A stretch of DNA of 64,000 nt from an uncultured Verrucomicrobiae bacterium (GCA_963769025.1 CAVYKI010000002.1:92942-156941); one strand, 5' to 3'. Counted from the stretch's first letter, positions 1-31,298 are shown. A program made the numbers and translations. Notes: generated by a model from the letters alone, not told the origin.

Positions 1-34
1 TGACGGCAGCCGGCTTCTGGCGTTGCCTTGACTC

Positions 35-691
35 ATGAAAGCGTTCCTCCCTCTCGCTCTCGCCGCGGTTTTTGTCGCCGCTGCTTTTCCCGCTTCTGCG
101 CAGCAACGGCCGAGGAAGGGCGACCTTCGCATGCCGGACACCGTGCGCGTGGGCGACGCGGCACCGGACTTCAAACTGAAAACACTCGATGGTTCGCGTG
201 AAGTGCAGCTCTCCAGCTTCCGCGGCAAGCGGCCGGTGGTCCTTGTCTTCGGGAGTTACACCTGACCCCCTTTCCGGAGTCAGGTTGGCTCCATCGAGCA
301 GCTCTACGCGGACTACAAGGACAAGGCCGAGTTCTTCATGGTCTATATCAAGGAGGCTCATCCCACCGACGGCAGAGTGTCGCCAGGCAATGCGCGCGGC
401 GGGATCTCCATTCCCGATCCGAAGACGTATGCCGAGCGGGCCGATGTCGCGCACAAGGCATGCACGGAACTGAAAATCACCCTCCCGTGTCTCGTGGACG
501 GGATGAACGATGCCGCGAACAAGGCCTACGCCGCGTGGCCGGATCGGATCTACGTCGTGGATGCCACCGGGAAGATCGCGGTGAGAGGCGGGCCGGGGCC
601 GTCCGGTTTTGCGCCTTCGATCACCGAGACGCGGGTGTGGCTCGGCAAGATGTTTGGGCCGAAAGGCGCGGCGTCTCCCGGTTCCCGCTGA
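35..691 (+). CDS. Secreted iodothyronine-deiodinase-family (thioredoxin-fold) selenoprotein; in-frame UGA (Sec) at 263-265
   Basis: Track ORFs 35..265 and 338..691 share one frame. The only interruption is TGA 263-265, and codons 266-337 are open. The joined product reads ...RPVVLVFGSYT-U-PPFRSQ...FFMVYIKEAHPTDG...LVDGMNDAANKAYAAWPDRIYVV.... This matches the deiodinase active-site signature FGSxT-U-PPF and the downstream YIxEAHPxDG block. Signal peptide MKAFLPLALAAVFVAAAFPASA. A GGU-loop hairpin starts 10 nt after the UGA, and selD is adjacent. Confidence 0.85.
276..292 (+). promoter_or_regulatory. Candidate bacterial SECIS hairpin of the deiodinase-like gene
   Basis: GGAGUC-AGGUU-GGCUCC: a 6-bp stem (one G.U pair) with an apical loop containing GGU. 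It starts 10 nt after UGA 263-265, and the loop is about 16-20 nt from the UGA. Confidence 0.55.
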
Positions 692-708
692 CGCACTTTC
701 CGCGGCGG

Positions 709-1773
709 TCAGTCTTTGCCGGAATAGCGGACCGAGATCACCGAGGGGCCGCTGCGGACGATCTTGCCGATAACCGCAGCGCAGGGAGTGAGATGTTTTT
801 TCAAGAGCGCCAGCACGGCGGAGAAATTCTTCTGCGCGACGCAGAGAAGGAGGCCGCCGCTGGTCTGCGCATCGGTAAGCAGCGAACGGAAACGCTCCGG
901 CGTGCGATCCCAATCGGTGATCGCGTTGGCCGTTTCTTCATTCTGCCTGCTGCCGCCGGGCACGCATCCTTCGGCGATGAGCGAAAAGATTTCCGCGCTG
1001 ATCGCCGGGACGGATTCGGCGGTGATCTCCGCACTCACGCCGCTCGCGCGACACATCGAGGCGAGATGCCCGAGCAGGCCGAAGCCCGTCACATCCACCG
1101 CCGCGCGGACGAGTTCCTTTTCCGCAAGCACCGCGCCGCTGGAATTGAGCTGCGACATCAGCGTGATCACCTTTTTGCCCAGCGCTGCGGAAGCGATCTG
1201 CCGTTTGATTCCCGTCGTGGCGATGCCGGTGCCGAGCGGCTTTGTGAGCACGAGCAGATCGCCTATGCGGGCGCGGGCATTTGTCAGCATCCGCCTGGGC
1301 GAAACGAGCCCGGTGACTGCGAGGCCATAGATCGGCTCGGGATTCCGGATCGTGTGGCCGCCGACGATCGTGCAGCCCGCCTCGCGTGCCTTCATTGCGC
1401 CTCCGCGCAGGATGGCGGCGATGGCATTCGGCGGGACGAGATCCGGCGGGATGCCCATGATGTTCAGCGCGGTCAGCGGACGCCCGCCCATCGCATACAC
1501 ATCGGAGAGCGCATTGGCCGCCGCGATTTGCCCGTACTGCCGCGGGTCGTCCACGACGGGCGTAAAGAAGTCCACCGTCTGCACCAGCGCGATGTCGCGG
1601 GTGAGACGCCAGACGCCTGCATCATCGGCCGTGGAGGAGCCGACGAGCAGCCTGGGATCGTCGATGCGTGGAAGCTGGCGCAAGACTTGCGCCAGGGCCT
1701 GTTGGCTCAGCTTGGAAGCTCAACCGGCACAGGACGACAACTCGGTCAGACGGAGAATTGGTTTGCGGGACAA
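709..1773 (-). CDS. selD: Selenide, water dikinase (selenophosphate synthetase), Sec-containing form; UGA (Sec18) at 1722-1720
   Basis: Track ORF 709..1683 (LLVGSSTADDAGVW...TVDFFTPVVDDPRQYGQIAAANALSDVYAMGG...) is a SelD body lacking its N-terminus. Reading on upstream in the same frame gives M(TTG 1773)SRKPILRLTELSSCAG-U-ASKLSQQALAQVLRQ.... This is the GxG(C/U)xxK catalytic loop, with U at the E. coli Cys17 position and K three residues later. A 13-nt SD, AAGGAGGUGAUCC, lies 6 nt upstream of the TTG. Confidence 0.9.
1675..1695 (-). promoter_or_regulatory. Candidate bacterial SECIS hairpin of selD
   Basis: On the mRNA strand: CUGGCGCAA-GUC-UUGCGCCAG. The inverted repeat is a perfect 9 bp (8 bp if the loop opens to AGUCU). 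It starts 24 nt after UGA 1722-1720, and the apical loop contains GU. Confidence 0.6.
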
Positions 1774-1889
1774 ATGGATCACCTCCTTTCGATTTCCAAA
1801 AGACCGCTGGTCCGCCGAAAGCCAAGGAGAAACCTCGGCCCGGAGAATTCCCGTTTGACGGCCCCGTGGGACGAATCGACCGTGGAGCC

Positions 1890-3059
1890 ATGAAAGCAGC
1901 CATCGCCCTCACGTTGTTCGCCGCTCTCGCATGGACGCACGCCAACGGCGCGACGCTGAACGAGGAATTGTCCGGTTTTTCCAAGCGCTTCGAAGCCGCC
2001 CAGCCGTCCGAAAGCCAGCAGGCGATCTGGAAGCTCGACTGGGAGGATCACCTTTCCACCGCCCTCGCGCGCGCGAAAACCGAGCGCCGGCCGATCCTTT
2101 TCATCCACGTCACCAACATCTCCGGCCCGTCCTACTTCGGTGCCGGGCATTGTTGAGCAAATGCCGACCACGTGAGAGGCAGTTGCCTCTCCCACAGTGA
2201 CGCGATCGAGGCACTCAGAGGATTCATTGTCACGTCTTGGAGCGGTCACACCGACATGCGCGATCCGAAGGACATGCCGCCTGAAGTTGCGCGTGTGCAT
2301 GCCACGGCCGCGGGCACGCGTGTGAAAGGCAACATCAAGTGCTTCATCCTCGCACCCGACGGCGAGGTCGAGGCGGTGTTCAATGCGTTCCCAAACAACG
2401 ATGTCACCTCCTTCGGCTTCGACGCGGACGAAGCCGGTCGCTACTTTGCGAAGAGCATCCGGCATTTCTCGAGCGGACTGAAAATCCCCGATCCCGCGAA
2501 GAAGGATTCGCGACTTGCGCTGCCGAAGACCCTCCAGGACGGCACGCCGGCAGACGCGCGGCTCGTGCTTCATGTTTCGCCAAAATCGCAGCCGTCCCAA
2601 TACCGCGCCGCCGTGGCCGAACCGTTGCGGCTCGGAATCGAGGCCCGTTCCGCGCTGAGTGGAGGGGGGAAGCCGGTGAAGGAATCGGGCACGGTCGCGG
2701 CCAGTTCGCTCGCGACCGTGCTGAAGCTTTTCTACCCGCCGGCGATCATGCAGGAGACCGGCGAGATCAGCGCGGTCGCAGGGACGCTCAATCTGAGTCC
2801 CATCGGCGCCAACAGCGACGGCGCTTGGGCAAAACTCACCGGTTCCGCGACGCTCACGCTGGACGATGGTGCGGACACGAAGTTCCCCGTGGAAGTGGAC
2901 GCGCTGGTGCTCACGGATCCGGCCAGCGGCGCGTTCAAATCCGTGCGCGGCATTCTCAATGGCGTTTGTCCGAAAGTGGCTGGCAAAAGCGGACCCGGAC
3001 GGACGCATCAACTGGAAATGACCGGCACTTTCACGAGCCTCGACGCGGATTCGAAGTGA
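1890..3059 (+). CDS. Secreted thioredoxin-like protein with vicinal Cys-Sec (UGA at 2154-2156); candidate new selenoprotein
   Basis: Track ORFs 1668..2156 and 2172..3059 are in the same frame, separated only by TGA plus 15 open nt. ATG 1890 (GGAG 4 nt upstream) gives the signal peptide MKAAIALTLFAALAWTHANG. The N-terminal pattern W..L..AL.RAK.E.RPILF resembles Thioredoxin_7/DUF255-type domains, and the UGA sits in the expected redox position: ...YFGAGH-C-U-ANADHVRGSC.... A 7-bp hairpin starts 17 nt after the UGA. The gene is divergent from selD. Confidence 0.7.
2174..2191 (+). promoter_or_regulatory. Candidate bacterial SECIS hairpin of the Cys-Sec protein gene
   Basis: GAGAGGC-AGUU-GCCUCUC: a perfect 7-bp GC-rich stem with loop AGUU (contains GU), starting 17 nt after UGA 2154-2156. 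Confidence 0.6.
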
Positions 3060-3467: not shown

Positions 3468-4391
3468 ATGAACTCCACAGACGGCATCCTCTTCAGTCTG
3501 ATCGTTCCGACGCTGAACAGGCACGACGACGTGGAGCGGTTGCTGGTGTCGATTGCCGGGCAGTCGTGCCGGGATTTCGAGGTCATCATCGTCGATCAAA
3601 ACGCGGACGATCGCCTCGGCGACCTATGCCGCGAGTTTGCGCGCCGCATGCCGCTGCTGCACCTGAAGGTGGAGTCGAAGGGGGCAGCGCGCGCGCGCAA
3701 CCACGGGCTTGGATTTGCAAAAGGTGGCATCATCAATTTTCCGGATGACGATTGCCAGCTCACGCCGGGATTGCTGGAAACCGTGGCCGCGCTCCTGAAG
3801 CAGAATCCTGACTGGGATGCGGTTTTCGGCCGCGCGATCGATCCGGTTTCAAAGGAAAGCTCAGTCACCAAGTTTGACTCGCGGGCGCAGTGGGTGACGC
3901 CAGGAAACGTCTATCAGACCACCGTGGAATTCACGATGTTCGCCAGACGATCGCTTTTCGACGAAGTCGGCCTGCTGGACGAAAATCTCGGCGTCGGGAC
4001 GTTTTTTGGTGCGGAAGAGGGCGCGGATTTTGTGTTGCGCGCGCTCTACAGGAAGAAGCGACTTTTCTACGACCCCTCGTTGCTGTTCTACCACGTGGAA
4101 AAAGTGGTCCGGTACGACGAGAAGGATCACGTGCGGGCGTACGAATATGGAAAGGGTTTCGGCCGCCTGTCGGTGAAGCATGCCCGGCTTTACCGGCAGC
4201 CGAGGGCTGCGCTGCGGTTCCTGTATCGGCTGGTGCGGGCCGCGATGGCGGTGGCGCTTTACCTCTGTCTGCTGAAGCCGAACCAGAGCAAATACTATCG
4301 CGAACTCATCCGCGGAAGGATGGTGGGAGTCTTCCGCTCCTGGAGCGAATTTGGGCGAAACGGCGCGGCCACGCTGCAGAAGAAATGCTGA
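3468..4391 (+). CDS. Family 2 glycosyltransferase
   Basis: N-terminus FSLIVPTLNRHDDVERLLVSIAGQSCRDFEVIIVDQNADD, then GAARARNHGL and FPDDDC (DxD-type). This is the classical GT2 GT-A pattern. Confidence 0.85.
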   Translation: MNSTDGILFSLIVPTLNRHDDVERLLVSIAGQSCRDFEVIIVDQNADDRLGDLCREFARRMPLLHLKVESKGAARARNHGLGFAKGGIINFPDDDCQLTPGLLETVAALLKQNPDWDAVFGRAIDPVSKESSVTKFDSRAQWVTPGNVYQTTVEFTMFARRSLFDEVGLLDENLGVGTFFGAEEGADFVLRALYRKKRLFYDPSLLFYHVEKVVRYDEKDHVRAYEYGKGFGRLSVKHARLYRQPRAALRFLYRLVRAAMAVALYLCLLKPNQSKYYRELIRGRMVGVFRSWSEFGRNGAATLQKKC

Positions 4392-4476
4392 ACGATCGCT
4401 GCCGGGAGGTTTGCGCGCGCCGGCCTTGCAACTTCAAAGCGAATAGACTTATGACTCCGTGAGCGCCAGTCCCCCG

Positions 4477-5652
4477 ATGAGAATCACCCTGAACGGCTAC
4501 TACGGCTTCGCCAATTACGGCGACGAGTTGTTCAATTTGACGACGGTCCTCGCCGCGCAGCGCTGGTGGGGAGGGCATCACGTGGACATCCTCGGTCCGC
4601 CGGTCCCGGGCATCGCGGCGGAATACCGGGTGCCGGCGTGGTTTCCCACGGCCCTCTACACTGGGCCGGGAGCGGTCGGGAAGGCGATCCGGCTGGCATT
4701 CTGTGCGGATGCGATGCTGCGGCGCGACTTACTCCTGTACGCAGGCGGTTCCACACTTTCATACGGCAGTATCCTCAAAAAAATCCAGAGGATCGCCGCG
4801 GAACGGAACTGCATCAAATTTGCCGGCATCGGCGTTTCCATAGGCCCGTTTGCAGATGCAGCGGACGAAGCGGAGGCCGCGCGTTTCCTTCGCAAGTTCA
4901 CCTGCATTTCCGTGCGCGACAGACGCTCGATGGACCATCTCCGGAAAATGGACATCCCGGTGAAGGCGTTGCTGGCGCGGGATCTCGTGGGTGCCCTGCC
5001 GCTCTTGCTGCCAGAGGGCGAAACCATGCAATCCGCCGGTGCAGGGAGCGCGCGCAAACCGCTGGGGATTTCACTCCGCGACTACGAGTGGCCCGATGCC
5101 GGAGACACGGCAGCCGCAGCTCGGAAGGAGGCGTTGTTCAAAGGCGTGGAGCGATTCGTAAAGCGCGAGCGGGTGCCGGTCCGCATTTTCTGCCTGAACA
5201 CCCACCCGCGTTCGGGGGATCAGGCGATGTCATCCCAGCTTGCGGAGCGCCTGACCCGGCAGGGCGCGGAGGTCGAGGTGATCAGCGCAAAGGACAACCT
5301 CCTCGGTTGCTGGCACGGGCTGGCATCTTGCTCCGCGGTATTCACCGTCCGTCTTCACGGTGCCATCACCGCGTACCTATGCGGTGTACCACTGGTCCAG
5401 ATCGAGTATCACGACAAGTGCACCGATCTGATGGATGACATCGGCCAGCACGCATCCTTGCGCATCGGCGGAGGCCATACCGATCCCGCGGCGATCGAGC
5501 AGGTCCTCGACCGGCTGTACCGTAACCCGCCGCCGCCGGCCTTGCCGCGAGAGACTTACATGGCCGAGGCCGCGTTGAACTTCACGCAGGTGCCATGGGC
5601 CACCGACCACGGAACGAAGGCGGCGGAGCATCCGGCGCAGCCCGCCCGGTGA
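4477..5652 (+). CDS. Polysaccharide pyruvyl transferase family protein
   Basis: MRITLNGYYGFANYGDELF... matches the N-terminal G..N.GD motif of PS_pyruv_trans/CsaB-like enzymes. The track ORF starts at GTG 4459; ATG 4477 gives the family-typical N-terminus. Start is uncertain. Confidence 0.75.
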   Translation: MRITLNGYYGFANYGDELFNLTTVLAAQRWWGGHHVDILGPPVPGIAAEYRVPAWFPTALYTGPGAVGKAIRLAFCADAMLRRDLLLYAGGSTLSYGSILKKIQRIAAERNCIKFAGIGVSIGPFADAADEAEAARFLRKFTCISVRDRRSMDHLRKMDIPVKALLARDLVGALPLLLPEGETMQSAGAGSARKPLGISLRDYEWPDAGDTAAAARKEALFKGVERFVKRERVPVRIFCLNTHPRSGDQAMSSQLAERLTRQGAEVEVISAKDNLLGCWHGLASCSAVFTVRLHGAITAYLCGVPLVQIEYHDKCTDLMDDIGQHASLRIGGGHTDPAAIEQVLDRLYRNPPPPALPRETYMAEAALNFTQVPWATDHGTKAAEHPAQPAR

Positions 5653-5807
5653 AACGGACAATTTCGACAATGTGGTTTGCTGCACTCACCACCCCGCAGA
5701 CCGCATCGGAATATTTCTGATCGCGGCGATTTCCACACCGAACCGATCGTGTCGCAAAAACTGAGTTTGAAGCCGGGAAACAAGGACGATGGAGGGATGT
5801 TAAACGG

Positions 5808-6932
5808 ATGAAACCAAATCTCGCCGAAGCAAGGGTAGCGTGGATCACCAGGCGCGAAGTGCTGGATGCCGATGCGCTCCCTGCCAATCATGCATGGGGA
5901 ACTGACGCCATTTTCTCGGCGGGAGCCAGGCGAGTGCAGCCGACGCGAATCCGGTGGATTGACGCGGTAGGAGCAAGGTTGCGCCTGGGGCCCAACCTCT
6001 CGGAACAGCTATGGCTCTTCTTTAACCAGAGAAAGTACGACTTCGTCATCGCCAAAGACACCGACCTGGTCTGCGTCCTCTGCGTCCTCCTCTGGTTGTT
6101 CCGGCAGAGCAAGGGGATATTCGCATTCCTCCACTTTCCGCTCCGGGTCTTCATCAAGGATTTTTTTCTGACGAAGCGTTGCAGCGTTCTCATGGCGCTC
6201 AGTGAAGAAATACACCGGCTTTCGCTCATCAGCTACCCCCGGGCAGCCCAACTTCTCAAAACCTTCGAATGGGCCGTCGATATTGAATTCTATGACCGGA
6301 TTCGCGCGGAACTGGATGCCGGTGGGCAGATCGAATCCGCAGGTGCTCCGGTGCCTGACGGCAAACTCCGCATTCTCCTCGTTGGGATCACCGGCAGGAA
6401 GTTCGCCTCATTCCTGGAGGCGACCGTTGCAGATCGGGATGTCGAAGTCCGGGTCGTGACCGATTCACCCGATGTGCTGCTTCAGATCCAGAGCCTCCCA
6501 AACTACACCCCGGTGCGGACGGAGCCGGATAAACCGGTAACCTATCGCCAACTTGTCGCGCAGTATCTCGCATGCGATGTCGTCGCCATTCCGCTGGAGA
6601 TCAAGGATGCTCCCGACGACGAACTTATCAGGCACCGGGCGACGCTTTGGGGAATCACCACCCTACTCGAAGCATCGGCCCTCGCGAGACCGGTCGTGAT
6701 GACCTTTAATCCGGTTCTAGGCTTCGACGTTGGCAGCCTGGAATGTGGCCTATGCCTCCGTGAGGACGACGCCCTCCATTGGAAAAAAGCGATCCAGTGG
6801 TGTCGCGGGCACAAGGCGTCGCTCAAGGCCATGGGTGAGCAGGCCAGGCGTAACGTCGACGAGTACTACAATTTGCGTTGCTTCCGGGAGCGGCTGAAGA
6901 CGACAATTGAAACTTACTATGCCAGTCAGTGA
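5808..6932 (+). CDS. Putative GT-B type glycosyltransferase (GT4-like C-terminal domain)
   Basis: Intact 374-aa ORF in a visibly AT-richer stretch. The C-terminal part (...WGITTLLEASALARPVVMT...GLCLREDDALHWKKAI...ARRNVDEYYN) resembles the nucleotide-sugar-binding half of GT4 enzymes. I did not recognise the N-terminal half. Confidence 0.55.
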   Translation: MKPNLAEARVAWITRREVLDADALPANHAWGTDAIFSAGARRVQPTRIRWIDAVGARLRLGPNLSEQLWLFFNQRKYDFVIAKDTDLVCVLCVLLWLFRQSKGIFAFLHFPLRVFIKDFFLTKRCSVLMALSEEIHRLSLISYPRAAQLLKTFEWAVDIEFYDRIRAELDAGGQIESAGAPVPDGKLRILLVGITGRKFASFLEATVADRDVEVRVVTDSPDVLLQIQSLPNYTPVRTEPDKPVTYRQLVAQYLACDVVAIPLEIKDAPDDELIRHRATLWGITTLLEASALARPVVMTFNPVLGFDVGSLECGLCLREDDALHWKKAIQWCRGHKASLKAMGEQARRNVDEYYNLRCFRERLKTTIETYYASQ

Positions 6933-7019
6933 CGCAACCTGGAATGGCCGGAACGAACCTCGCATCCACGCCAAGTTGGCCAGTCCGAAGGCTGCCGATG
7001 CGTTTGGATAAGGAGAAAC

Positions 7020-8381
7020 ATGCAGTTGCTTTTGCTTAGTTTGTTCTTTCTGGCGACTGTTACGTCCTCGTGGGACTTAATCGGAGTGCTCGACGTTGCC
7101 GGAGGAAATCTGCGCATTTGTTCCTTCTTCATGGTGAGTTTCATCGCGGCATCCATGATTTGCTTCAAGCCGAGTCGCGTACCCCGCGTCCGCGGATTTG
7201 TTCTTCTGCTGATTTGGTTTGGGTTCAACTTGGTTGGCGCCACGAATGCGCCTCAAGTTTTTCGAACGTATGCGTATCTCGTCTGGCTGACTCTTGACGT
7301 CGCCCTGGTCTTTGCGTGTGCAGCGGCCTTCAGGACTCCGCGAGACCTAGCCACCCTTGCGCGTTGGAACTACTACAGCTTCATCCCAATCTCGTTGTTT
7401 GGGTTGATCCAGTTTGCTGCCTATCCGCTTGGCATCAATTTGCTGGTAAAACAAACTTGGGTCTCGGTTCTGGCGCGGATTAACGGATTCTCCTACGAGC
7501 CTTCCTACTACTCGACATACATGATTGTCGGTTGGGCCATGTCCTTTGTGCTCCTCGTGCGGGGTGTACATTTTGTCCGTCCGGCGTTGAGTTGGGCTGT
7601 CTTTGGAATGCATACGGCCGTTCTTGTCCTTTGCAGCTCGCGGATTGGCTACCTCGGCATGGGAGTAATGGGCTTGGTCATGGCCCCGACAATCCTGAAA
7701 TCCTTCCGAACCTCCCGGACGAGCAGGATTTTGACATCTGTAGCGGCTCTTGGCGCGGTGGTTTTGATTGGCGGCGGGGCGGTTCTCCTCATGAGTGTCA
7801 AAGATACGCCACTTCTGCTCGAGGGGACCGGCTTGGGTGGGACAGCGGCACACTCCGTGGATCAGCGTATGGCTGGAGTCGAACTATACGAGGAATTGTT
7901 CATGGCCAACCCGTTGAAAGGCTACAGTGTGGGCGGCATCGCGGCGCAAATCGCGGGGGCGGACGGGTCCATGTCCATCGATTACGAGGCCATGCGACAA
8001 AGCCAGGGGTGCAACGTTTCGCTCGAAATCCTGCTGGCTACGGGCATCGTTGGGGCGCCGTTTTTTTTCTGGTACTTTTTCAAGCTCACCTTTGCCTCGC
8101 TCAGTCGAATCCGCACCGTTGCCGATGCGCGCATGCGTGCAATATGTGCCGCCAATATCTGGGGCCTTATCATGCAGTTTTTCCTGCTGCAATTTAACCA
8201 AAATATCTTGCGTAACTATTTTTGGATCCAAATCGCGGTGGTGTCTTGTCTTGTGACTCACGCCTTGCGCCAAAGGCGTGGAGAGCATGCACTCCCGGTC
8301 CATCATTCGCGGTCATTCCAGGCGGAGCGCGAGCACGCACCGCTTCCGGAGGCGGCCAATCTTTCCATTCCGCGAGCATGA
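7020..8381 (+). CDS. O-antigen ligase/polymerase-like (Wzy-type) integral membrane protein
   Basis: 453 aa, with about 10 or more hydrophobic segments, a large loop (...GTGLGGTAAHSVDQRMAGVELYEE...) and AAGGAG 7 nt upstream. It sits between glycosyltransferases in a Wzx-containing locus, in AT-richer sequence. Confidence 0.7.
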   Translation: MQLLLLSLFFLATVTSSWDLIGVLDVAGGNLRICSFFMVSFIAASMICFKPSRVPRVRGFVLLLIWFGFNLVGATNAPQVFRTYAYLVWLTLDVALVFACAAAFRTPRDLATLARWNYYSFIPISLFGLIQFAAYPLGINLLVKQTWVSVLARINGFSYEPSYYSTYMIVGWAMSFVLLVRGVHFVRPALSWAVFGMHTAVLVLCSSRIGYLGMGVMGLVMAPTILKSFRTSRTSRILTSVAALGAVVLIGGGAVLLMSVKDTPLLLEGTGLGGTAAHSVDQRMAGVELYEELFMANPLKGYSVGGIAAQIAGADGSMSIDYEAMRQSQGCNVSLEILLATGIVGAPFFFWYFFKLTFASLSRIRTVADARMRAICAANIWGLIMQFFLLQFNQNILRNYFWIQIAVVSCLVTHALRQRRGEHALPVHHSRSFQAEREHAPLPEAANLSIPRA

Positions 8382-9463
8382 AGATTTTGTTTGATGCCCG
8401 TTGCCTCATGCAGCCTACGACCGGCATCCAGGTCGTCGCTCGCAATCTGCTCGCCGAGTTGTCGCGCTCGGACATGGTTGACGAACTTGTTGTCCTCGCA
8501 GGGCCGGAAGTCGACATCGGCGACGGAGCGTCGGATTGCGAGTGCGTTCGCACAGGGATCGGCCCATATGATTTTTTCCGGCAGCGAGAGGTGGCGCGGT
8601 TGATCAATCAGACGGAGGCGGATATCCTGCTCTCGCCAACCTATTTCATTCCGTATGGCGTGAAGAAGCCTTACATCATGATGGTCCATGATTTGATCCC
8701 CCGGAAGATATGGCTCGGGCGGCAGTCAATTTATTACCGCTGCCTGCTTGGGGAACGCATGCGTTCTGCGCTTGGGATATGGACGGTTTCGAATTACTCG
8801 CGCCGGGAAATCCTCTCCACCAATGCGAATTTGGATGCGCGGGTCCAGGTATTGCCGTCTGGTTATACGAGCGCTCCAGGCAGTGCGGCGCCTTTGTGCA
8901 AGCGGCGCGAGCTTCTGGTCTTCGCGAGCCGGTTTCGCCACAAGAACATCTCGTTTGCCATCCGCGCGTTCGAAGCCCTGCAGGCGATTTCAGGCAAGGC
9001 TTGGAAGCTGCATGTGGTCGGCAACCTTTCGCACATGCAGGACGCTGCGTTTCCGGAAGGCGTTTCCCTTCGGGGCCGTGTGACGGACAGCGAACTCACC
9101 GAGCTTTACCGGCAGTGCTGGGGTGTGTTGCTTCCGTCTATGGAGGAAGGGTTCAGCCTGCCGTTGATCGAGGGCATGAGCCATGGCTGCGTAGTCTTTT
9201 ACCATCGTCATACGGCGATGAGCGAAACTGCCGGCGAGGCGGGGGTCGGGCTTGATTTGGGGCGACCCGAAGAATGGGCGCAAGCGATCATCGCAACTGC
9301 GGCGGGTGACGGCGAGGCGGAGGCGCACCGGGATCGGGCACGGAAGCGCGCTGCGGAATTTTCAAGGGAGCGCTTTGTCTCCGCATTTCACGGGGCGCTC
9401 AGCCGGACTTTGGAGGGTTTGCCGTTCGGAACCGGAGCAACGCGGAAACATCATTCAAAATGA
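8378..9463 (+). CDS. Family 4 (group 1) glycosyltransferase
   Basis: MKILFDARCLMQPTTGIQVVARNL... N-terminus, and a C-terminal EEGFSLPLIEGMSHGCVV (E-x7-E-like) motif. The ATGA overlap with the upstream stop supports ATG 8378 rather than the track start 8222. Confidence 0.8.
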   Translation: MKILFDARCLMQPTTGIQVVARNLLAELSRSDMVDELVVLAGPEVDIGDGASDCECVRTGIGPYDFFRQREVARLINQTEADILLSPTYFIPYGVKKPYIMMVHDLIPRKIWLGRQSIYYRCLLGERMRSALGIWTVSNYSRREILSTNANLDARVQVLPSGYTSAPGSAAPLCKRRELLVFASRFRHKNISFAIRAFEALQAISGKAWKLHVVGNLSHMQDAAFPEGVSLRGRVTDSELTELYRQCWGVLLPSMEEGFSLPLIEGMSHGCVVFYHRHTAMSETAGEAGVGLDLGRPEEWAQAIIATAAGDGEAEAHRDRARKRAAEFSRERFVSAFHGALSRTLEGLPFGTGATRKHHSK

Positions 9464-10599
9464 GCAACGTCGCGCTGGCTCATCATTGGCTCATCAGCAT
9501 GCGTGGAGGTGAACGCGTGCTGGAAGAGATGTGCGCGCTTTTTCCCGACGCACCCGTCCACACTCTCGTCGCGCAGGTCGATCGGCTCAGTGCCCGGATT
9601 GCGGCGCATCGCATCGTTCCTTCGCTGCTCCAGCGGCTGCCCGGGGCGACGCGGCACTATAAAAAACTGCTGCCGCTTTTCAAATTCGCGATCCCGCGGA
9701 TGCGCGTGGCGGCGGAGACGCAGTTGGTTTTCAGCTCCGACGCGAGCATGATCAAAGGGCTGAACGTGCCGCCGGGAGTGCCCCATGTCTGCTATTGCCA
9801 CTCGCCTCCGCGTTACCTCTGGGATCTGCACGAAACGTACATGAAAGGCAGTGCGGAGATCGGCGCGTTCGGGCGTTTTGTGTTCCGGCACGTGCTGGCT
9901 TCCGCGCGCGCCTTTGACCTTGCGGGCGCGAAGAAGGTTACGCACTTCATCGCCAATTCCGCCTTCGTCCGGGAGCGCATCCGGCGGATTTACGGCCGTG
10001 AATCGGTGGTGATTCATCCGCCGGTTTCGGTGGATGATTTTTCGGCGGAGCGCCCGCGGAAGGACTTTTTCCTGCTCGTCTCCGAAATCACGCCCTACAA
10101 GCGCGTGGACCTGGCGGTCGAGGCGTTCCGGCGGAATGGCCGGCAGTTGGTGGTAATCGGAGACGGTTCCGAGATGGCCGCGTTGCGGGGGAGCGCCCCT
10201 TCCAACGTGACTTTCCTCGGGCGCCAGTCCTTCGCCGTGCTCAAGGAGCACCTGGAGACTTGCCGGGCATTCGTCTTTCCGGGGATTGAAGATTTCGGCA
10301 TTGCGCCGTGCGAAGCGCAGGCGTCTGGCGCGCCGGTGATCGCCTTTGCCGAGGGTGGCGCGCTGGAGACGGTGAAGGACGGGGTGACTGGCGTTTACTT
10401 CGCCGAGCAGACGCCGGATGCGCTCGTCGCGGCGCTGGAACGGTTTGAAGCACTCCCGCCTTTTAGCCCCGAGGTCTGCCGCGTCAATGTCGAGCGGTTT
10501 CGCCCGGAGCAGTTCCGCCGCGCCATTCGCGAATATATGGCTTCGGAATTTCCGCGGTTTTTCGCCAGCTACCCGTGGCCTGAGGAGGGGAAACCGTAG
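9460..10599 (+). CDS. Family 4 (group 1) glycosyltransferase
   Basis: HHWLISMRGGERVLEEM... N-terminus and EDFGIAPCEAQASGAPVIAFAEGGALETV C-terminal motif. ATGA overlap with the upstream gene. Confidence 0.85.
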   Translation: MSNVALAHHWLISMRGGERVLEEMCALFPDAPVHTLVAQVDRLSARIAAHRIVPSLLQRLPGATRHYKKLLPLFKFAIPRMRVAAETQLVFSSDASMIKGLNVPPGVPHVCYCHSPPRYLWDLHETYMKGSAEIGAFGRFVFRHVLASARAFDLAGAKKVTHFIANSAFVRERIRRIYGRESVVIHPPVSVDDFSAERPRKDFFLLVSEITPYKRVDLAVEAFRRNGRQLVVIGDGSEMAALRGSAPSNVTFLGRQSFAVLKEHLETCRAFVFPGIEDFGIAPCEAQASGAPVIAFAEGGALETVKDGVTGVYFAEQTPDALVAALERFEALPPFSPEVCRVNVERFRPEQFRRAIREYMASEFPRFFASYPWPEEGKP

Positions 10600-10635
10600 C
10601 GCCAGAGCGGGGAGCATTCCGCGGCGGGGGCGGGC

Positions 10636-11931
10636 TTAGGAGGCGGCAGGTTGTGCGAGGGGGAGTTTCTGGAAGGGATTGAGCCGCATTTTCCAGAGGG
10701 TAATAAATACGGCGATGGTGATGGCAATCTCCGTCGCGAGAAGTGCGATTGCTGCGCCGAGTTCCATGAGCCATGGGGTCAGCGCGAGGACGAGGATCAC
10801 ATCGAGTGCGGCTCCGGCCCCGACGATCCGGTTGTAGGAACGCTCGTGGCCGAGCGGGAACATCCACCGGATTCCAAGCACGCCATTGAGCGCGGAGAAC
10901 GGGCACACCAGCCCCAGCACGCGCAGGACCGGGATGGCACGCTCATAGCCGGGGCCGAACAAAAGGTGGACCAGCCATGGCGCTCCGAGTGTGAGCGTCA
11001 GCCCGAGGAGCAGGCCTATTGCGCCGAGCGCGAGCGTGCCGCGCCGGACGGTGTTGCGCGCCTGATGGATGTCGTGTTTCACCAAGTGTGCGAGGTGCGG
11101 GTAGAGGACTTGGTTGATCGGGCCGGTAAAGGTGAGGAAACCGCGCATCAGCCGTTCGGGTCCGCCGTAGAAACTGACGACGGCCGGGGTGATCAGGATG
11201 CCGAGCATGAAGCCATTGGCCTTTGCATAGAGGGTGATGACTGCGACGAAGAGGAAGAAGTGCCATGCATCCCGCATCGTCCGTGCTGCGCGGGCGAGAC
11301 TGCACATGGCAAAGCGGACGGTACGGTACATGAGGCGGAATCCTATTCCAAGCGACAGCGTGAAGCTGATGGCCTGGTAGAATATCACCTTGGTCGCATC
11401 CTCGGGGGCCTTGATCAGGAAAAAGACGCTGATGGTGAAGAGCAGCCGGCACGCGACTTCAACGGACGCGGCGAGGCGCATGCGCTGGATGCCTTGAAAG
11501 TACCACATGGGACTGAACCCCTGTGCGATGGCGATCCACATTGCACCGATAAGGATGAGGGGATTCTCCCGAAATGTCGGAACTCCCAGCCAGAACACGA
11601 TGCCGGTCGCCAAGCCGAGGATGCTGAGGCCGACCTTGCAGGCCATTACGTCACTTACGATTTTGCGCAGCTTTTCCGGATTGCCGGAATGGCGGGCGAC
11701 CTCACGCGTGGCAGAATAGACAAATCCAAATTCCACGAGGATCGTGGGCCAGACCGCGACGGCCTGGGCGAAGAGGACCATTCCCCACGCGTCGGGCCCG
11801 AGTACGCGCGCGAGGTACGGCACGGTGACCAGAGGGAGGAGCGAATTGGCAATCGTGACTGCGTAAAGTGCGAAGGCATTTTGCGCGAGACTCCCGCGGC
11901 AGAGGGTGGAGATTTTTTGGAAAAGCGTCAC
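10636..11931 (-). CDS. Wzx-type polysaccharide flippase (MOP superfamily)
   Basis: 431 aa and polytopic. N-terminus ...SLAQNAFALYAVTIANSLLPLVTVPYLARVLGPDAWGMV is typical of O-antigen/EPS flippases. Confidence 0.85.
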   Translation of the reverse strand: MTLFQKISTLCRGSLAQNAFALYAVTIANSLLPLVTVPYLARVLGPDAWGMVLFAQAVAVWPTILVEFGFVYSATREVARHSGNPEKLRKIVSDVMACKVGLSILGLATGIVFWLGVPTFRENPLILIGAMWIAIAQGFSPMWYFQGIQRMRLAASVEVACRLLFTISVFFLIKAPEDATKVIFYQAISFTLSLGIGFRLMYRTVRFAMCSLARAARTMRDAWHFFLFVAVITLYAKANGFMLGILITPAVVSFYGGPERLMRGFLTFTGPINQVLYPHLAHLVKHDIHQARNTVRRGTLALGAIGLLLGLTLTLGAPWLVHLLFGPGYERAIPVLRVLGLVCPFSALNGVLGIRWMFPLGHERSYNRIVGAGAALDVILVLALTPWLMELGAAIALLATEIAITIAVFITLWKMRLNPFQKLPLAQPAAS

Positions 11932-12406
11932 TGCGCTTGCGGGTGATTTTCGATCCTGCCAAGAACCGCCGGCGAAGCACTGAACGTCAGGCGCTTGCGG
12001 GATGTTCCGCTTTGAGTGCCGCGTGGGAGGGACATGACTTCGAGAGCGGAATTTGGGCGATCCGAGTTGGGAGCTTGGTCACTATCCCCATCTGGATACA
12101 GGGTCAATGGCGGTTTGAAGCCGGAGTTCCGTGAAGGTTCCCGTCGTCGGCGTTTTGGATGGCGGACGATCCTCAATGTCTCACGGGAGAGCGGTGAGAG
12201 CGCTGTGAAACACCCCGTACCTTTCCCGACAGTACTCACGTGAGGTTTTATCAATTTTGCGCCAATCCATGAGTTCTGAAACTCGTTGGAAATGCTCCGA
12301 ACTCGGTCACACAAAAGGCTTGATGTTCTAAATGATGGCTCGTTGACTGGCGTCTCCCTCTACGCCCGCTGTCGCTACACCGGGCCTCTCCCGTCCAAAA
12401 ATTATT

Positions 12407-13885
12407 ATGAGTCGTCTGACCGATGAACTGTTGGAGTTATCGCGTGCCCGCCAAACGACGGATACCGCCGAGGTCAATCGCGCAATCGCGTGGCGCTTCC
12501 GGTTTCTCAGTGTGCTGGGTGACGCCGCGATCATCGTCGCGGCCTTGCTCTTCGCGTTTTGGGTGCGGTTCCGGACCGATTTCCTCAGTGGCGGCACGGT
12601 CAGCCCCCACGTACCTTTTCAAGGCTATCTGGTATTCGTCGGCATCGGGGCGTTGGTGCTCTTGTTGTTGCTCGCACATTACGGAATGTATCAGGCAGCC
12701 CAGCTCCTTCGCTACCGGCAGGTTTCTTTTTTGATCATCAAGGGGTGCTTCCTATGGTTCGTCGGTGTGCTTTTTGTCACCAGGGTGCTGAATGCCCCGC
12801 TCTCGCTTCCGGTGACATATGTGGGCCTCTCCTCCGCCTGTTTGCTGGTGTCCCTGCTGGCTTGGCGGGCAGTCCTCCACCGCATCTCTGCGATGGACGC
12901 ATTTTCCAGGCATCTCCGCGAACGGATTCTCTTCGTCGGCTGGAACGACATGGCAGAACGACTCACGAAATACGTGATGAGCGACCCATCTCATGCCTAC
13001 GCCGTGGTGGGATGCATTCCGCCGGTCAGCGGAAACTACGAGAAGCAGCCCCCCGCTGAAATCCCGCACATCGCGGCCTTCCAGGATATCGTCAATATGC
13101 TCCGGTCGAAGTGCATCGACATCGTCTTGTTGGCCGACCGGACCGCGTCGATGACTGAAATCGATGAGCTGGCGGCCATTTGCGAAAAGGAGCTCGTGCA
13201 GCTGAAAGTGATCCCGTCGTACTTCCAGATATTGGTAACCGGGCTCAGCCTGCAGACGATCAGTGGCGTTCCCATCCTCGGCATCTCGCAATTGCCGCTG
13301 GATCGCCCCGTGAATCAAATCCTCAAGCGAATCGTGGACATCGTCGGCTCGATCGTCGGCCTGATCCTCTCGGCGCCCATCATCGCGGTATTTGGGACAT
13401 TGGTGTATCTGGAATCGCCCGGACCGATATTTTACCGGCAGCCCCGGGTAAGGCGGGGAGGGATCCCGTTTGGCATGTTCAAAATTCGCAGCATGCGGCT
13501 GGATGCGGACAAGAGTGACAACCTCCAGCAGTCCACGCCAAAGGATGATCCGCGATTGCTGAAAGTTGGCGGGTTCATGCGCCGTTGGAACATCGACGAG
13601 ACCCCGCAGTTCTGGAACGTGCTCAAGGGCGAGATGAGCCTCGTCGGACCGCGTCCCGAGCGGCTCTACCATTCGGAGAAACTGAGCGATGAGATCCCGC
13701 ACTACAGCGCCCGCTATTGGAGCAAGCCGGGGATGACGGGGTGGGCGGCGGTGAACGGACTTCGCGGGGAAAGCGACTTGGTCGAGCGTATCCGGTGCGA
13801 TTTGTATTACCTCGAAAACTGGAATCTTTGGCTCGATTTCCAGATCATGTTCCTCACATTCCTCCGCCGGAAAGGCGCGGCCTGA
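12407..13885 (+). CDS. Initiating undecaprenyl-phosphate sugar-phosphate transferase (WcaJ/WbaP/EpsB type)
   Basis: N-terminal TM bundle, a central Rossmann-like region, and the C-terminal bacterial sugar transferase domain (KRIVDIVGS...ESPGPIFYRQPRV...FKIRSM...DETPQFWNVLKGEMSLVGPRP). Confidence 0.9.
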   Translation: MSRLTDELLELSRARQTTDTAEVNRAIAWRFRFLSVLGDAAIIVAALLFAFWVRFRTDFLSGGTVSPHVPFQGYLVFVGIGALVLLLLLAHYGMYQAAQLLRYRQVSFLIIKGCFLWFVGVLFVTRVLNAPLSLPVTYVGLSSACLLVSLLAWRAVLHRISAMDAFSRHLRERILFVGWNDMAERLTKYVMSDPSHAYAVVGCIPPVSGNYEKQPPAEIPHIAAFQDIVNMLRSKCIDIVLLADRTASMTEIDELAAICEKELVQLKVIPSYFQILVTGLSLQTISGVPILGISQLPLDRPVNQILKRIVDIVGSIVGLILSAPIIAVFGTLVYLESPGPIFYRQPRVRRGGIPFGMFKIRSMRLDADKSDNLQQSTPKDDPRLLKVGGFMRRWNIDETPQFWNVLKGEMSLVGPRPERLYHSEKLSDEIPHYSARYWSKPGMTGWAAVNGLRGESDLVERIRCDLYYLENWNLWLDFQIMFLTFLRRKGAA

Positions 13886-14044
13886 GCGGATCGTGATACC
13901 GGCTTTTTCCGTCGCCGAAGCGGAGGTTGACATGCGGGCTCCGCTTTCCGTATTGAAAGCCGTGTTAATCCGCTGGAAAGCCCGATTCCCCTCCAGTGTG
14001 TCCCTGCGTCGGCCGTACTCACTGACAGGGCACGCAGTCGTCGC

Positions 14045-16129
14045 ATGAAGCCCAACAGCAACCAATCACCCGAGGGAGACGCGGAGCAATATGCGGACTT
14101 CGATCTGCAGTCACTTTATGAGGCCGTGCGGCGGAGAATATGGCGGATTGCTGCCTGCAGCCTCGCCGGACTGCTAGTCGGCGGCGTGTGGGCCGCCATG
14201 CGCCCGGATGTCTTTGAGGCCACCGCGACTGTACGCGTGGAGGAGCAGAATCCCTCCGTCATCGCCATTCAGGAAATCAACAAAGAGGATTTCCGGCAGC
14301 CTGAGGACTTGAAGACAGTCGAGCAGCAGTTGCTGACTGACGATCTGATCTGGCGGGTGATCCGGAAGATCAAGCTCGACGTGACCCCGGGGTACTTCAA
14401 ACCGGGTCTGCGTCACCGGCTAACGGGGCAGCCGGTCTCAAAGGCTAATATGATCGATGCGATCCGGAACAGCTTCAGCGTGAGATTGCGAAAGGGAACC
14501 CGGCTGATCGACATCACCATCCAGCAAGGAAAACCGGAAATGGCGCAGGCCCTCGTGCGTTCCTTGATCGATGAGTACGTGAGCCAGATCGCCGAGTGGC
14601 GCCTGAACCCGTCCAAGGAAGCGACCAAAATCCTCGTGGACGAATCCGAACGCCTCAAGCGCAAGCTGGAAGAGGCCGAGCAGGCCCTGCAGGATTACCG
14701 GGAAAAGAACCACGCCGTTTCGCTCGAAGACAAACAGAACATCGTCGTCGAGCGCCTGAAGGACCTGAACATGCGCGTGGCGAAGGCGCAAAACGACACC
14801 CTCGCGCTGGAGTCCGATCTCGCGCAACTCGACAAAATCGGGCGCCAGCCGGAGAAGTTGCTCGCGATCGGAAGCATCGCCAATGCGCAGTCCGTCCTGG
14901 ATGTGCAGCGCGTTCTTACGGAGAAGGAGTCGGCATTTGCGGTGCTCCGGCAGCGCTACGGGCCGGAAAACCCCCTTTACACGCAGGCCGAACGGCAAGT
15001 GCAGCAGGTCCGCGCAACTTTCGAGGTCACGGTCCAGAATGCGGCCGACTCGCTCCGTGCGAAGCATGAGGCGGCGAAGTTCGCCCAGCAGATGTCGGAG
15101 AAGATGTTGCTCGAACAGGAAAAGCAGGCTCTCGACCTGAACAAGAAGGCGACCCAGTACGACGTGCTCAGCCGCGAGGTCGAATCTGATCGTGCGCTCT
15201 TCGCGGCGGTCCTCAAGCGGCTCAAGGAGACCGGCGTCATTCAGAACACCGGCCAGACCAATCTTCGCGTCGTGGATCCTCCGATGCTGCCCGAGTCACC
15301 AAAATGGCGGACGAAACTGCTCATCGTCGCATTTGGAATGTTCGGGGGCGTTGCGTTGGGATTTGGCGGTGTCGTTGGCGCGTACGTCGTCCGGCCCACG
15401 TTGCAGTTGTTGGATCAGGGCGAACGCATGCTGGGACTCCCGGGTCTGGGCGCGATTCCATACGCGTCCGGGTTGAAAGGCGACGCCAGCCAGGTTCCGT
15501 GCGTCAAGCATCCGCGCTCGCAGGCGGCCGAGGCATTTCGATTCCTCGTCGCCTCCGCATCGGCGGCGCTCGGCGGGGCAGGGAAGGGGAGCTTCCTGTT
15601 TACCGGCGCGGCGAAGGGCGATGGCAACACCTCGTGCGCCGCATCGTATGCCGTCGCACTCGCCCAGAGTGGCGTGCGCACGCTTTTGATCGATGCCGAT
15701 CTGAGGAACCCCGTGATCGGCAGGCTGTTTTCCATCCCGAAGGAAACCAGCGGACTTGCAGAATGCCTCGCAGGTCGCAGTACGCTGGAGGCGTGCGTCG
15801 TCCCAACAAAGGTGGAGAACCTTTTCGTGCTCGTCGCGGGAGCCGCGCCGCCTGATGTTTCCGCGCTCTTTTCGCCCACGGCGCTTGGATCCCTGCTCGG
15901 CAAGGCGGCGGAAGAATACGGACAGGTCGTCATCGACTCGGCGCCCGTCAACGTCGCGAGTGAGACATTGTCCATCGCCCGTCACGCGAGCGCGGCCTGC
16001 ATCGTCGTCCGTTCCGGAAGGACGGCAATCCGTGCGGCTTCCCGCGCGGCCCGGTTGCTTGGCCAGGCGGGGCGCAAGCCGGTCGGATTCATCCTGAATT
16101 CCGTCCCACGTCGGACGCTGGCGCAGTAG
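14045..16129 (+). CDS. Polysaccharide co-polymerase (PCP-2a/Wzc/GumC-like) with degenerate BY-kinase domain
   Basis: Wzz-like N-terminus, a long coiled-coil periplasmic region and a second TM. The C-terminal P-loop ATPase domain retains LLIDADLRNP (Walker A') and VVIDSAP (Walker B), but Walker A reads GAAKGDGNTS (Lys replaced by Asn) and there is no C-terminal Tyr cluster. Confidence 0.85.
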   Translation: MKPNSNQSPEGDAEQYADFDLQSLYEAVRRRIWRIAACSLAGLLVGGVWAAMRPDVFEATATVRVEEQNPSVIAIQEINKEDFRQPEDLKTVEQQLLTDDLIWRVIRKIKLDVTPGYFKPGLRHRLTGQPVSKANMIDAIRNSFSVRLRKGTRLIDITIQQGKPEMAQALVRSLIDEYVSQIAEWRLNPSKEATKILVDESERLKRKLEEAEQALQDYREKNHAVSLEDKQNIVVERLKDLNMRVAKAQNDTLALESDLAQLDKIGRQPEKLLAIGSIANAQSVLDVQRVLTEKESAFAVLRQRYGPENPLYTQAERQVQQVRATFEVTVQNAADSLRAKHEAAKFAQQMSEKMLLEQEKQALDLNKKATQYDVLSREVESDRALFAAVLKRLKETGVIQNTGQTNLRVVDPPMLPESPKWRTKLLIVAFGMFGGVALGFGGVVGAYVVRPTLQLLDQGERMLGLPGLGAIPYASGLKGDASQVPCVKHPRSQAAEAFRFLVASASAALGGAGKGSFLFTGAAKGDGNTSCAASYAVALAQSGVRTLLIDADLRNPVIGRLFSIPKETSGLAECLAGRSTLEACVVPTKVENLFVLVAGAAPPDVSALFSPTALGSLLGKAAEEYGQVVIDSAPVNVASETLSIARHASAACIVVRSGRTAIRAASRAARLLGQAGRKPVGFILNSVPRRTLAQ

Positions 16130-20215: not shown

Positions 20216-20254
20216 CGGTGATTCGAGTCGGAGAAATTCGGGTGGCTGGGCATT

Positions 20255-21934: not shown

Positions 21935-22246
21935 TTCAGCGCCGTCCCGCTCAGTGGGTCAAACCTCGCCGGGGACCGGCGGCTTGACGTTCATGAGCGC
22001 GATTTTCGCTCAGGTGCGATTACTGGTGGCAGACTATGCACGCGGAATTTCGCGACAAGCCCAAAGCACGGCGCCGCACCGCGGGCGGGAATCATTCGTA
22101 AGCAACCGTTCAACGGCGATTCGCGAGAGTGCGGTTCTTTCGCCCGCAGTCGTCCCGATTTGCCGTCCAGCCCACTTCTTTCGCGTGGTAAAGGATGCCC
22201 CGTCGCCCGGTTCGGAAGGAGCGCTCTCACTGCAGATCCGGTGGCA

Positions 22247-23725: not shown

Positions 23726-23860
23726 GGTCGTGTCCCTCAGTACACCCAGTTTCCTCACTTTCGTTACAGCGAAGCAAGCAAAGAATGCCCCGATAACATC
23801 TGTATGGATTGCTTATCCACAGGCTTGCATTTCATCGGCACGGCTGGCACCAAGGGCGCG

Positions 23861-24322
23861 ATGACACGACCGGTTTCTGAGTCCGTGGTACTGCTTGTGG
23901 TGGAGGAGTTAAATCTCGCCTTGCACCTCGAAGCCGTGGAGTGCGTCATCCGGTCCGTTGAGATTTCCGCGCTGCCGGATGCGCCGCACGGCGTCCTGGG
24001 TGTGATCAACCTGAAGGGCCGGATCATTCCCGTGTTCGATCTGCGGGCGCGTTTCGGGCTGCCGCCGCGCGAAGTCCGCGCGAGCGATTACCTCGTCATC
24101 TCCCGCCTGCGCTCTCGCTCGGTGGCCTTGTTGGTGGACACGGTCGTGGGCGTGGTGCCGGCCGGCCAGATGCAGTTGATCCAGTCTGCGGAAATCCTGC
24201 CGGAAATGGAATCCATCTCCGGTGTCCTGAAACTTGGGGGCAACCTGGTTTTTGTGCATGATTTGGAAAAATTCCTTTCGACAGAGGGTTACGGCGCGCT
24301 CGAGGCGGCGCTGGAACGTTAG
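23861..24322 (+). CDS. cheW: Chemotaxis coupling protein CheW
   Basis: ...VLGVINLKGRIIPVFDLRARFGLP...VALLVDTVVGV... CheW-like domain. ATG 23861 lies inside the longer track ORF 23498..24322. Confidence 0.85.
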   Translation: MTRPVSESVVLLVVEELNLALHLEAVECVIRSVEISALPDAPHGVLGVINLKGRIIPVFDLRARFGLPPREVRASDYLVISRLRSRSVALLVDTVVGVVPAGQMQLIQSAEILPEMESISGVLKLGGNLVFVHDLEKFLSTEGYGALEAALER

Positions 24323-24334
24323 CCGCCACACGCC

Positions 24335-26488: not shown

Positions 26489-26515
26489 CGAATTTCACCA
26501 GGAATCACCAAACCC

Positions 26516-28779: not shown

Positions 28780-28804
28780 CCGCCATCTCCCGCAGGAGCA
28801 CCTC

Positions 28805-31296: not shown

Positions 31297-31298
31297 CC

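Follow-up and report, generated by a model that had tools for sequence, protein, structure and literature searches.

What does a single in-frame UGA codon mean when it recurs in each of three neighbouring bacterial genes? The question is raised by one end of a 64-kb stretch of DNA from an uncultured Verrucomicrobiae bacterium (GCA_963769025.1 CAVYKI010000002.1:92942-156941; hereafter the window), of which positions 1-3059 are the segment analysed; mean G+C is ~63%. This segment carries a deiodinase-family gene, the selenophosphate synthetase gene selD and a gene of an uncatalogued family, named here GHCU. Comparison of sequences makes it very likely that all three are selenoprotein genes, in which UGA specifies selenocysteine (Sec), and that GHCU is a family missing from existing lists. 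The deiodinase-family protein and SelD belong to selenoprotein families that are already known.

A listing of open reading frames (ORFs) breaks the segment into five fragments (35..265, 338..691, 709..1683 on the minus strand, 1668..2156 and 2172..3059), and one continuous protein per gene appears once a single TGA is read through in each. The original prediction, made from the DNA of the window alone, had proposed three neighbouring genes with one in-frame TGA each, which read-through of 35-691, 1773-709 and 1890-3059 confirms. It counted six ORF fragments; five were reproduced, the sixth being merely the 17-codon N-terminus of selD. Its warning that annotation pipelines would go wrong here is borne out by the public gene calls for the window's own contig, which give truncated products only (324, 117 and 267 aa). 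The features of the segment are as follows.

35..691, plus strand: deiodinase-family selenoprotein gene with predicted signal peptide, 218 aa; stop UGA at 689-691
35..100, plus strand: predicted signal peptide of the deiodinase-family protein, MKAFLPLALAAVFVAAAFPASA, by inspection
263..265, plus strand: Sec codon UGA of the deiodinase-family gene, context VLVFGSYT-U-PPFRSQ
276..292, plus strand: candidate Sec insertion sequence (SECIS) hairpin of the deiodinase-family gene, GGAGUC-AGGUU-GGCUCC, 10 nt past the UGA, -9.1 kcal/mol
1773..709, minus strand: selD, selenophosphate synthetase, Sec form, 354 aa
1773, minus strand: TTG start of selD, 7 nt past an AGGAGG Shine-Dalgarno sequence at 1782-1787
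1722-1720, minus strand: Sec codon UGA of selD, LSSCAG-U-ASKLS, UxxK motif
1675..1695, minus strand: SECIS hairpin of selD, CUGGCGCAA-GUC-UUGCGCCAG, 24 nt past the UGA, -14.5 kcal/mol
1774..1889: divergent intergenic region between selD and the GHCU gene, 116 bp; both promoters are presumed to lie here, from position only
1890..3059, plus strand: GHCU gene, predicted secreted selenoprotein of an uncatalogued family, 389 aa
1890..1943, plus strand: predicted signal peptide of the GHCU protein, MKAAIALTLFAALAWTHA
2154..2156, plus strand: Sec codon UGA of the GHCU gene, FGAGHC-U-ANADHVRGSCLSH, in the context GAGHC-U-ANADHVRGSC
2174..2191, plus strand: SECIS hairpin of the GHCU gene, GAGAGGC-AGUU-GCCUCUC, 7 bp, 17 nt past the UGA, -12.4 kcal/mol

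The true stops of the three genes are also UGA (689-691, 709-711 and 3057-3059). UGA is therefore an ordinary terminator in these genes as well, and the genetic code has not been reassigned. Each of the three mRNAs contains one recoded and one terminating UGA, which are told apart by context alone.

A UGA codon conserved across the GHCU family

The GHCU protein consists of an N-terminal Sec-bearing domain (~180 aa) followed by a β-rich C-terminal domain (~200 aa). As had been anticipated, no family can be named for it: the window protein has no match in Pfam or NCBIfam 20.0, and nothing was found in the PDB by sequence, either with the single sequence or with two profiles. The first homology search returned 12 clusters; every one is a C-terminal fragment (262-300 aa), and the sources are Chthoniobacteraceae-type bacteria or metagenomes. 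In the contigs fetched for these homologues a short ORF on the same strand ends immediately upstream of the fragment, and in each case reading through its stop gives GHC-TGA-ANADHVRGSCLSH. When 1.84 billion representative proteins were searched with a profile of the C-terminal part, 81 clusters at 50% identity were obtained. These too are all C-terminal fragments (100-320 aa), starting at or after '(M/V)RG' 3′ of the TGA, and the family's taxa are Verrucomicrobiota and Gemmataceae. The N-terminal domain as query retrieved N-terminal and C-terminal fragments only, which in one Gemmataceae assembly carry the neighbouring locus tags VKD72_40085 and VKD72_40090. Twenty-seven independently called N-terminal fragments stop exactly at GHC. 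None of the 179 family sequences is a full-length member, and none reads GHC-x-[AG]N contiguously.

The TGA occupies the same column (G-H-C-U-[A/G]-N) in 10 of the 10 distinct loci that were read through, in two phyla. Two distant members at 23-27% identity, L013 from a Verrucomicrobiae bacterium and L014 from a member of the Gemmataceae, both read GHC-TGA-GNATSVR(A/G)GPLS. Along the five codons from the UGA to the next possible start the frame is conserved, with changes that fall mostly in third positions, and protein conservation is strong on both sides. The invariant residues of the family are grouped at R-P, V-x-N, G-H-C-U-x-N-A and V-R; the window protein also has a Cys at +10, which the family as a whole does not conserve.

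Under a competing explanation, the in-frame TGAs of the segment are ordinary stops, nonsense mutations or assembly errors, and the pieces are separate small genes or pseudogenes. Such a reading agrees with the way in which gene callers and NCBI annotate the pieces apart, and frame-disrupted genes do occur elsewhere in this assembly. It is contradicted by the recurrence of one TGA column in independent assemblies from two phyla and by conservation that continues over the TGA, including the codons ahead of any downstream start.

The original prediction had proposed aligning homologues and asking whether Cys or TGA fills the Sec column. The alignment places TGA there in the 10 loci, and no Cys form was found among the family sequences gathered. 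Scans of genomes and metagenomes for further relatives gave two loci and one locus, respectively, and one of the two genome patterns had Cys at the Sec codon. Judged from these sequences, the family seems to use Sec obligatorily. Selenoprotein families without any Cys-containing homologue are, to our knowledge, unusual. Three variants were seen among metagenome members (P0177, P0168/P0170, P0087): one N-terminal fragment ends in GFC, not GHC; an N-terminal repeat domain of ~170 aa precedes the Sec domain in some members; and one member has a different C-terminal region beyond its first ~125 residues.

A 2026 inventory comprises 119 prokaryotic selenoprotein families, all with Pfam, NCBIfam or CDD identifiers (PMC13188914, Table 1). 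The window protein, L013, L014 and the fragments P0013, P0014, P0035 and P0150 match no Pfam or NCBIfam 20.0 model, a comparison made through Pfam and NCBIfam models, outside which fall a few families defined by CDD or PANTHER identifiers alone. No description of the family was found in the literature on the motif and on selenoproteins of these phyla. GHCU is very probably a new selenoprotein family; in the window its gene adjoins those of two known families, most likely within a Sec gene cluster of the ordinary kind.

Two known selenoprotein families and the hairpins past the UGA codons

The deiodinase-family protein matches Pfam T4_deiodinase (PF00837) with E = 1.7e-34 and 119.6 bits, against a cut-off of 27; AhpC-TSA and Redoxin are weaker Pfam matches. 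Its TGA falls in the column of the catalytic FGSxT-[U]-PPF site, where Cys replaces Sec in the crystallised Dio2 (9h48) and Dio3 (4tr3), and an orthologue in a close relative, L010, is 85% identical and keeps the TGA. The NCBIfam model NF038285 (deiodinase_rel) gives 208.7 bits, below its cut-off of 250, and the match spans model positions 177-337 of 347, which is the C-terminal half only. For both reasons the protein is regarded as a shorter relative of NF038285, not as a member of that equivalog.

Deiodinase-like selenoproteins of bacteria were first reported from the Sargasso Sea metagenome in 2005 (PMC1088965) and appear in the 2026 inventory (PMC13188914). The window protein is like them in its Pfam family, in the catalytic column occupied by Sec and in the bacterial-type hairpin that comes after the UGA. 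It differs in its motif, which is U-P-P-F as in animal deiodinases, whereas the inventory gives UxxC for the bacterial family (PMC13188914). The signal peptide and the partial, sub-cut-off match to NF038285 are further differences. Judged by sequence, it is most likely an exported thioredoxin-fold protein of the deiodinase family with Sec at the catalytic position, the export being predicted.

The selD product is a full-length member of the equivalog TIGR00476 (E = 1.3e-112, 376.1 bits, cut-off 125) and matches E. coli SelD (3u0o) with E = 4e-75. In alignments its Sec shares a column with Cys17 in the E. coli enzyme and with the Sec13-to-Cys position in the Aquifex enzyme, and the TGA is kept in L010. 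UxxK, which it carries, is the SelD motif of the 2026 inventory (PMC13188914). The protein thus resembles Sec-type SelD (TIGR00476) in its full-length match and in the U-A-S-K of its N-terminal loop. A Cys stands three positions ahead of the Sec (C-A-G-U-A-S-K, a CxxU arrangement; 1720..1731, minus strand), whereas E. coli has a Cys17/Cys19 pair. Since this SelD is a Sec form, synthesis of the selenium donor itself requires selenium. The claim of the original prediction that each TGA lies at a catalytic or redox position holds, as a catalytic one, for both known families, whose columns match Dio2/Dio3 and the E. coli and Aquifex SelD proteins.

In bacteria the SECIS element is a stem-loop that lies shortly 3′ of the UGA and whose small apical loop contains a G (PMC1088965). 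Hairpins with GU in the loop, predicted at 10-24 nt from the UGA, are present in all three genes (10 nt in the deiodinase-family gene, 17 nt in the GHCU gene, 24 nt in selD). In the GHCU gene, pairing holds in 98.4% of cells over 9 distinct sequences and falls to 48-68% in slid registers. Two pairs carry compensatory changes, one in L013 (G:C to C:G) and one in L014 (C:G to G:C), and the covariation score was reached by 0 of 500 shuffles. Synonymous variation among the eight closer sequences is seen in only two of the seven stem codons, as compared with 83.5% of the 170 codons for invariant residues in the whole gene; the stem windows are the lowest of 35, and both stem changes preserve pairing. 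The selD hairpin is the minimum-energy element (z = -2.0), and in L010, where it reads CUGACGCAG...UUGCGUCAG, it shows one compensatory change of G:C to A:U and one change of A:U to G:U. Conservation of a bacterial SECIS is accordingly seen in the GHCU gene, through covariation and synonymous suppression, and in selD, through one compensatory pair.

Several observations tell against the hairpins as SECIS elements. The one in the deiodinase-family gene, which is the weakest of the three, makes up ~15% of the ensemble and is not the minimum-energy fold; being identical in L010, it affords no covariation test. No Rfam SECIS family was found at E ≤ 10 over positions 1-3200, and in the window the gathering threshold yielded a tRNA-Thr only; the covariance-model detection called for in the original prediction thus returned no SECIS match. 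Compared with shuffled sequences, the hairpin energies have z = -0.2 to -2.0, none of them exceptional in DNA of 63% G+C. It is the comparative evidence, not hairpin thermodynamics, that lifts recoding above chance.

That the hairpins are not individually significant also favours the reading of the TGAs as plain stops or errors. Their covariation opposes it, as do the positions of the deiodinase and selD TGAs on catalytic Sec/Cys columns of solved structures and the Sec machinery that adjoins the genes in L010. An in-frame UGA conserved together with its protein flanks is found in the GHCU family (10 loci and 27 GHC fragments) and, through L010 and the structural columns, in selD and the deiodinase-family gene. 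Comparative data have effectively refuted the stop-or-error reading already, and it is extremely improbable. On the recoding explanation, one UGA in each of the three genes is read as Sec. SelB with Sec-tRNA(Sec) would, as in the mechanism established for other bacteria, bind the short hairpin 10-24 nt past that codon.

Genomic setting of the three genes

The genes required to decode Sec are found in the relative. Window positions 18-3065 align with L010 at 86% nucleotide identity, the alignment ending just past the GHCU stop, and the gene order in L010 is Rdx (SelW-like), tRNA-Sec, selA, selB, deiodinase-family gene, selD and GHCU gene.

L010, 1..3531: end of the Rdx/SelW-like gene, tRNA-Sec (145-241), selA and selB, upstream of the three genes
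L010, 7168..7253: tRNA-Ser, just past the end of synteny with the window

With the machinery directly upstream in L010, the window probably begins in the selB-deiodinase spacer, at the tail of a Sec-machinery cluster. The tRNA-Ser beyond the end of synteny suggests that the block may be bounded by tRNA genes. A point that weighs on the other side is that the 64-kb window contains no selA, selB or tRNA-Sec, its sole tRNA being a tRNA-Thr at 42717. With selA, selB and selC supplied by comparison with L010, the segment is most likely the distal end of a Sec-utilisation cluster in a Chthoniobacteraceae-like verrucomicrobium.

Selenoprotein genes beside Sec machinery are a known pattern; in Proteobacteria, for instance, fdhA can adjoin the Sec-insertion operon (PMC4807772). 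Like the Sec-decoding clusters described there (selC-selA-selB with or without selD; PMC4807772), L010 groups machinery with client genes. The clients differ, being a deiodinase-like gene and an unlisted family in the window and L010 and FdhA in the published clusters. The window does hold an FdhA-type gene, which is a frame-disrupted Cys form, unlike the fdhA of known Sec clusters.

The original prediction had gone further and proposed that the three genes form one dedicated periplasmic selenium-dependent redox module with a shared pathway. They are adjacent in an order kept in L010 (86% nucleotide identity), and the export that the prediction assigned to the deiodinase-family and GHCU proteins is supported by an N-terminal signal peptide on each, by inspection. 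SelD, however, is a cytoplasmic enzyme that supplies all Sec synthesis. The genes are not one operon either, as the deiodinase-family gene and selD are convergent and selD and the GHCU gene divergent. Synteny with L010 ends at the GHCU stop, after which an unrelated exopolysaccharide cluster follows in the window.

Surveys of other loci also fail to support a module. The GHCU gene adjoins selD and a deiodinase gene only in L010, within the Sec-machinery cluster, and in the other contexts examined its homologues are never beside either. Searches by tblastn with the deiodinase-family protein and SelD among the fetched loci gave matches in L010 only, L008 likewise lacking both genes. In L001, L004, L005, L006, L013, L014 and two further contexts available as gene lists without DNA, the neighbours are unrelated genes, among them those for sulfatases, amidohydrolases, extracytoplasmic function (ECF) sigma factors, kinases and efflux pumps. 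A dedicated module is very unlikely. Since adjacency is not conserved elsewhere, the arrangement points to lineage-specific placement of client genes by the Sec machinery, and what looked like an 'island' is probably no more than one end of such a machinery cluster.

The sole recurring neighbour of the GHCU gene is a large DUF7133-HEAT protein gene with a cupredoxin or cytochrome c domain (L004, 5820..9008; L005, 4575..7535), which lies on the opposite strand, directly or a short way downstream. The recurrence may be coincidence.

The rest of the window has the following features.

3468..16129: exopolysaccharide cluster (GT2, pyruvyl transferase, Wzy-like, GT1, Wzx, Bac_transf, Wzz/GNVR)
18502..33698: chemotaxis cluster (methyl-accepting chemotaxis proteins, CheR, CheA, CheB-hybrid kinase)
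52009..56882, minus strand: NAD-linked formate dehydrogenase-type operon (NuoE/NuoF-like genes, then an FdhA-like gene)
58312..63722: planctomycete-type cytochrome genes (PSCyt1/PSCyt2/PSD1)

The PSCyt1/PSCyt2/PSD1 genes fit with a genome of the PVC superphylum (Planctomycetes-Verrucomicrobia-Chlamydiae). A crude scan for other in-frame TGA codons flagged two that were rejected. The one at 20257 separates two genes, an SBP_bac_5 protein gene and a second gene starting 13 codons downstream, and the one at 42092 is a normal gene end. The FdhA-type gene (52-55 kb) was considered as a fourth selenoprotein gene and rejected, its active site ARVCHSPT being the Cys form. The domains encoded by this gene are Fer2_4, NADH-G_4Fe-4S_3, Molybdop_Fe4S4, Molybdopterin and Molydop_binding. 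The operon is interrupted by six or more frame switches, every one in the same direction, with one Molybdopterin domain spread across three frames; the operon is either a decaying pseudogene or the site of clustered indel errors. CheA (28945..31073, plus strand) also looks frameshifted near 30180, with Hpt in one frame and the rest of HATPase_c and CheW in another. Frame breaks are hence not confined to the formate dehydrogenase operon, which leaves the assembly quality uncertain.

Fold, location and possible role of the GHCU protein

In the GHCU protein the GHCUxN motif lies between a predicted β-strand and a helix, which is the position of CxxC in the thioredoxin fold. AlphaFold2 (AF2) models were made of residues 90-389 and 90-200, omitting β1 and the Sec loop, with predicted local distance difference test (pLDDT) scores of 86.7 and 84.3, respectively. 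They show α1-(β2)-α2-β3-β4-α3 after the predicted β1, followed by a five-strand β-rich domain. A thioredoxin-like fold with the Cys-Sec pair at the CxxC position would be a reasonable reading.

Fold and profile comparisons give hints of such a fold but no significant match. Foldseek with both partial models gave nothing at E ≤ 0.001; the top match of the partial domain, modelled without β1 and the Sec loop, is a thioredoxin at a non-significant E = 2.3. A profile search of the PDB for a thioredoxin-like match was empty, and Pfam Thioredoxin_7 on L013 stays below threshold (E = 0.065; 13.8 bits, cut-off 27). A point against a redox role is that the CU motifs of other bacterial selenoproteins are often tied to metal handling and not to disulfide chemistry (PMC13188914).

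The location of the Sec domain is predicted from the N-termini of the family, which are signal peptides or single transmembrane anchors, and from the topology of L014 (GCA_035259065.1). There, positions 679..2664 encode in one frame Sigma70_r2 (Pfam E = 3e-12), Sigma70_r4_2 (E = 3e-6), one transmembrane helix and the GHCU domain; in public annotation the sigma factor gene simply stops at the Sec codon. A similar architecture is suggested for P0165 and P0152, P0165 having given no Pfam match. Together these features would place the Sec domain outside the cytoplasm. ECF sigma factors with C-terminal transmembrane and extracytoplasmic extensions occur in planctomycetes. L014 resembles them in its Sigma70_r2/r4_2 domains and single transmembrane helix ahead of the GHCU domain. 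It differs in that the extracytoplasmic module would be a selenoprotein domain. The protein of the window, for its part, lacks a sigma domain and starts with a plain predicted signal peptide. We know of no description of a selenoprotein domain as the extracytoplasmic module of an ECF sigma factor.

Mammalian thioredoxin reductase ends in GCUG, in which adjacent Cys and Sec form the redox centre. The GHCU protein is like this and other CU redox centres (the CU families of PMC13188914) in its adjacent Cys-Sec and possibly in the placing of the pair at the β1/α1 junction, and like DsbA/DsbG-like selenoproteins in its predicted extracytoplasmic location. It is unlike CU and thioredoxin-fold selenoproteins in having no detectable sequence or fold match to them, a β-rich domain of ~200 aa without a PDB match, and no Cys homologues found. 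Its CU motif is internal, not C-terminal, with an invariant His before and an invariant Asn after it. By likeness to the GCUG end of thioredoxin reductase, the pair would cycle through a selenenylsulfide, and the protein would act on an extracytoplasmic substrate held by the β-rich domain. Such a redox mechanism is the best guess for the protein, put forward with less than even confidence.

The His-Cys-Sec motif could instead be an extracytoplasmic chelator of soft metals, for example Cu(I), Hg or Zn, making the protein a binder or sensor of metals or metalloids. His, Cys and Sec are invariant and adjacent, and the 2026 inventory contains metal-related CU-motif families, namely SaoL, SaoC, HgcA, MbdU and a 2Fe-2S protein (PMC13188914). 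The Cys at +10 is not conserved, which leaves the vicinal Cys as the sole CxxC-like resolving partner. A vicinal Cys-Sec pair fits redox cycling equally well, however, and metal-transport or resistance genes are not consistently near GHCU homologues. Metal binding or sensing is rather unlikely as the role of the protein. In some lineages the domain would, on the same explanation, be the sensor module of a membrane-spanning ECF sigma factor; this draws on the in-frame fusion in L014 and the similar P0165 and P0152, but Pfam confirms the sigma fusion in the one locus only and P0165 has no Pfam match. That role, too, is somewhat doubtful.

A further proposal, improbable at present, is that Planctomycetota and Verrucomicrobiota use GHCU outside the cytoplasm as a sensor or catalytic module that depends obligately on selenium and in which Cys cannot replace Sec. 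Were this true, the Gemmataceae form, fused through one transmembrane helix to an ECF sigma factor, would amount to selenoprotein-based transmembrane signalling, with gene expression coupled to a redox or metal cue from outside or to the supply of selenium itself.

As a new selenoprotein family, GHCU would be a sizeable addition to the ~119 known in prokaryotes, with at least 81 clusters at 50% identity from soil and freshwater Verrucomicrobiota and from Gemmataceae, and public annotation splits every one of its members into two 'hypothetical proteins'. Families without Cys homologues are a good place to ask what selenium does that sulfur cannot. The His-Cys-Sec triad, the predicted extracytoplasmic location and the occasional fusion to ECF sigma factors provide concrete, testable hypotheses for what this family may do.

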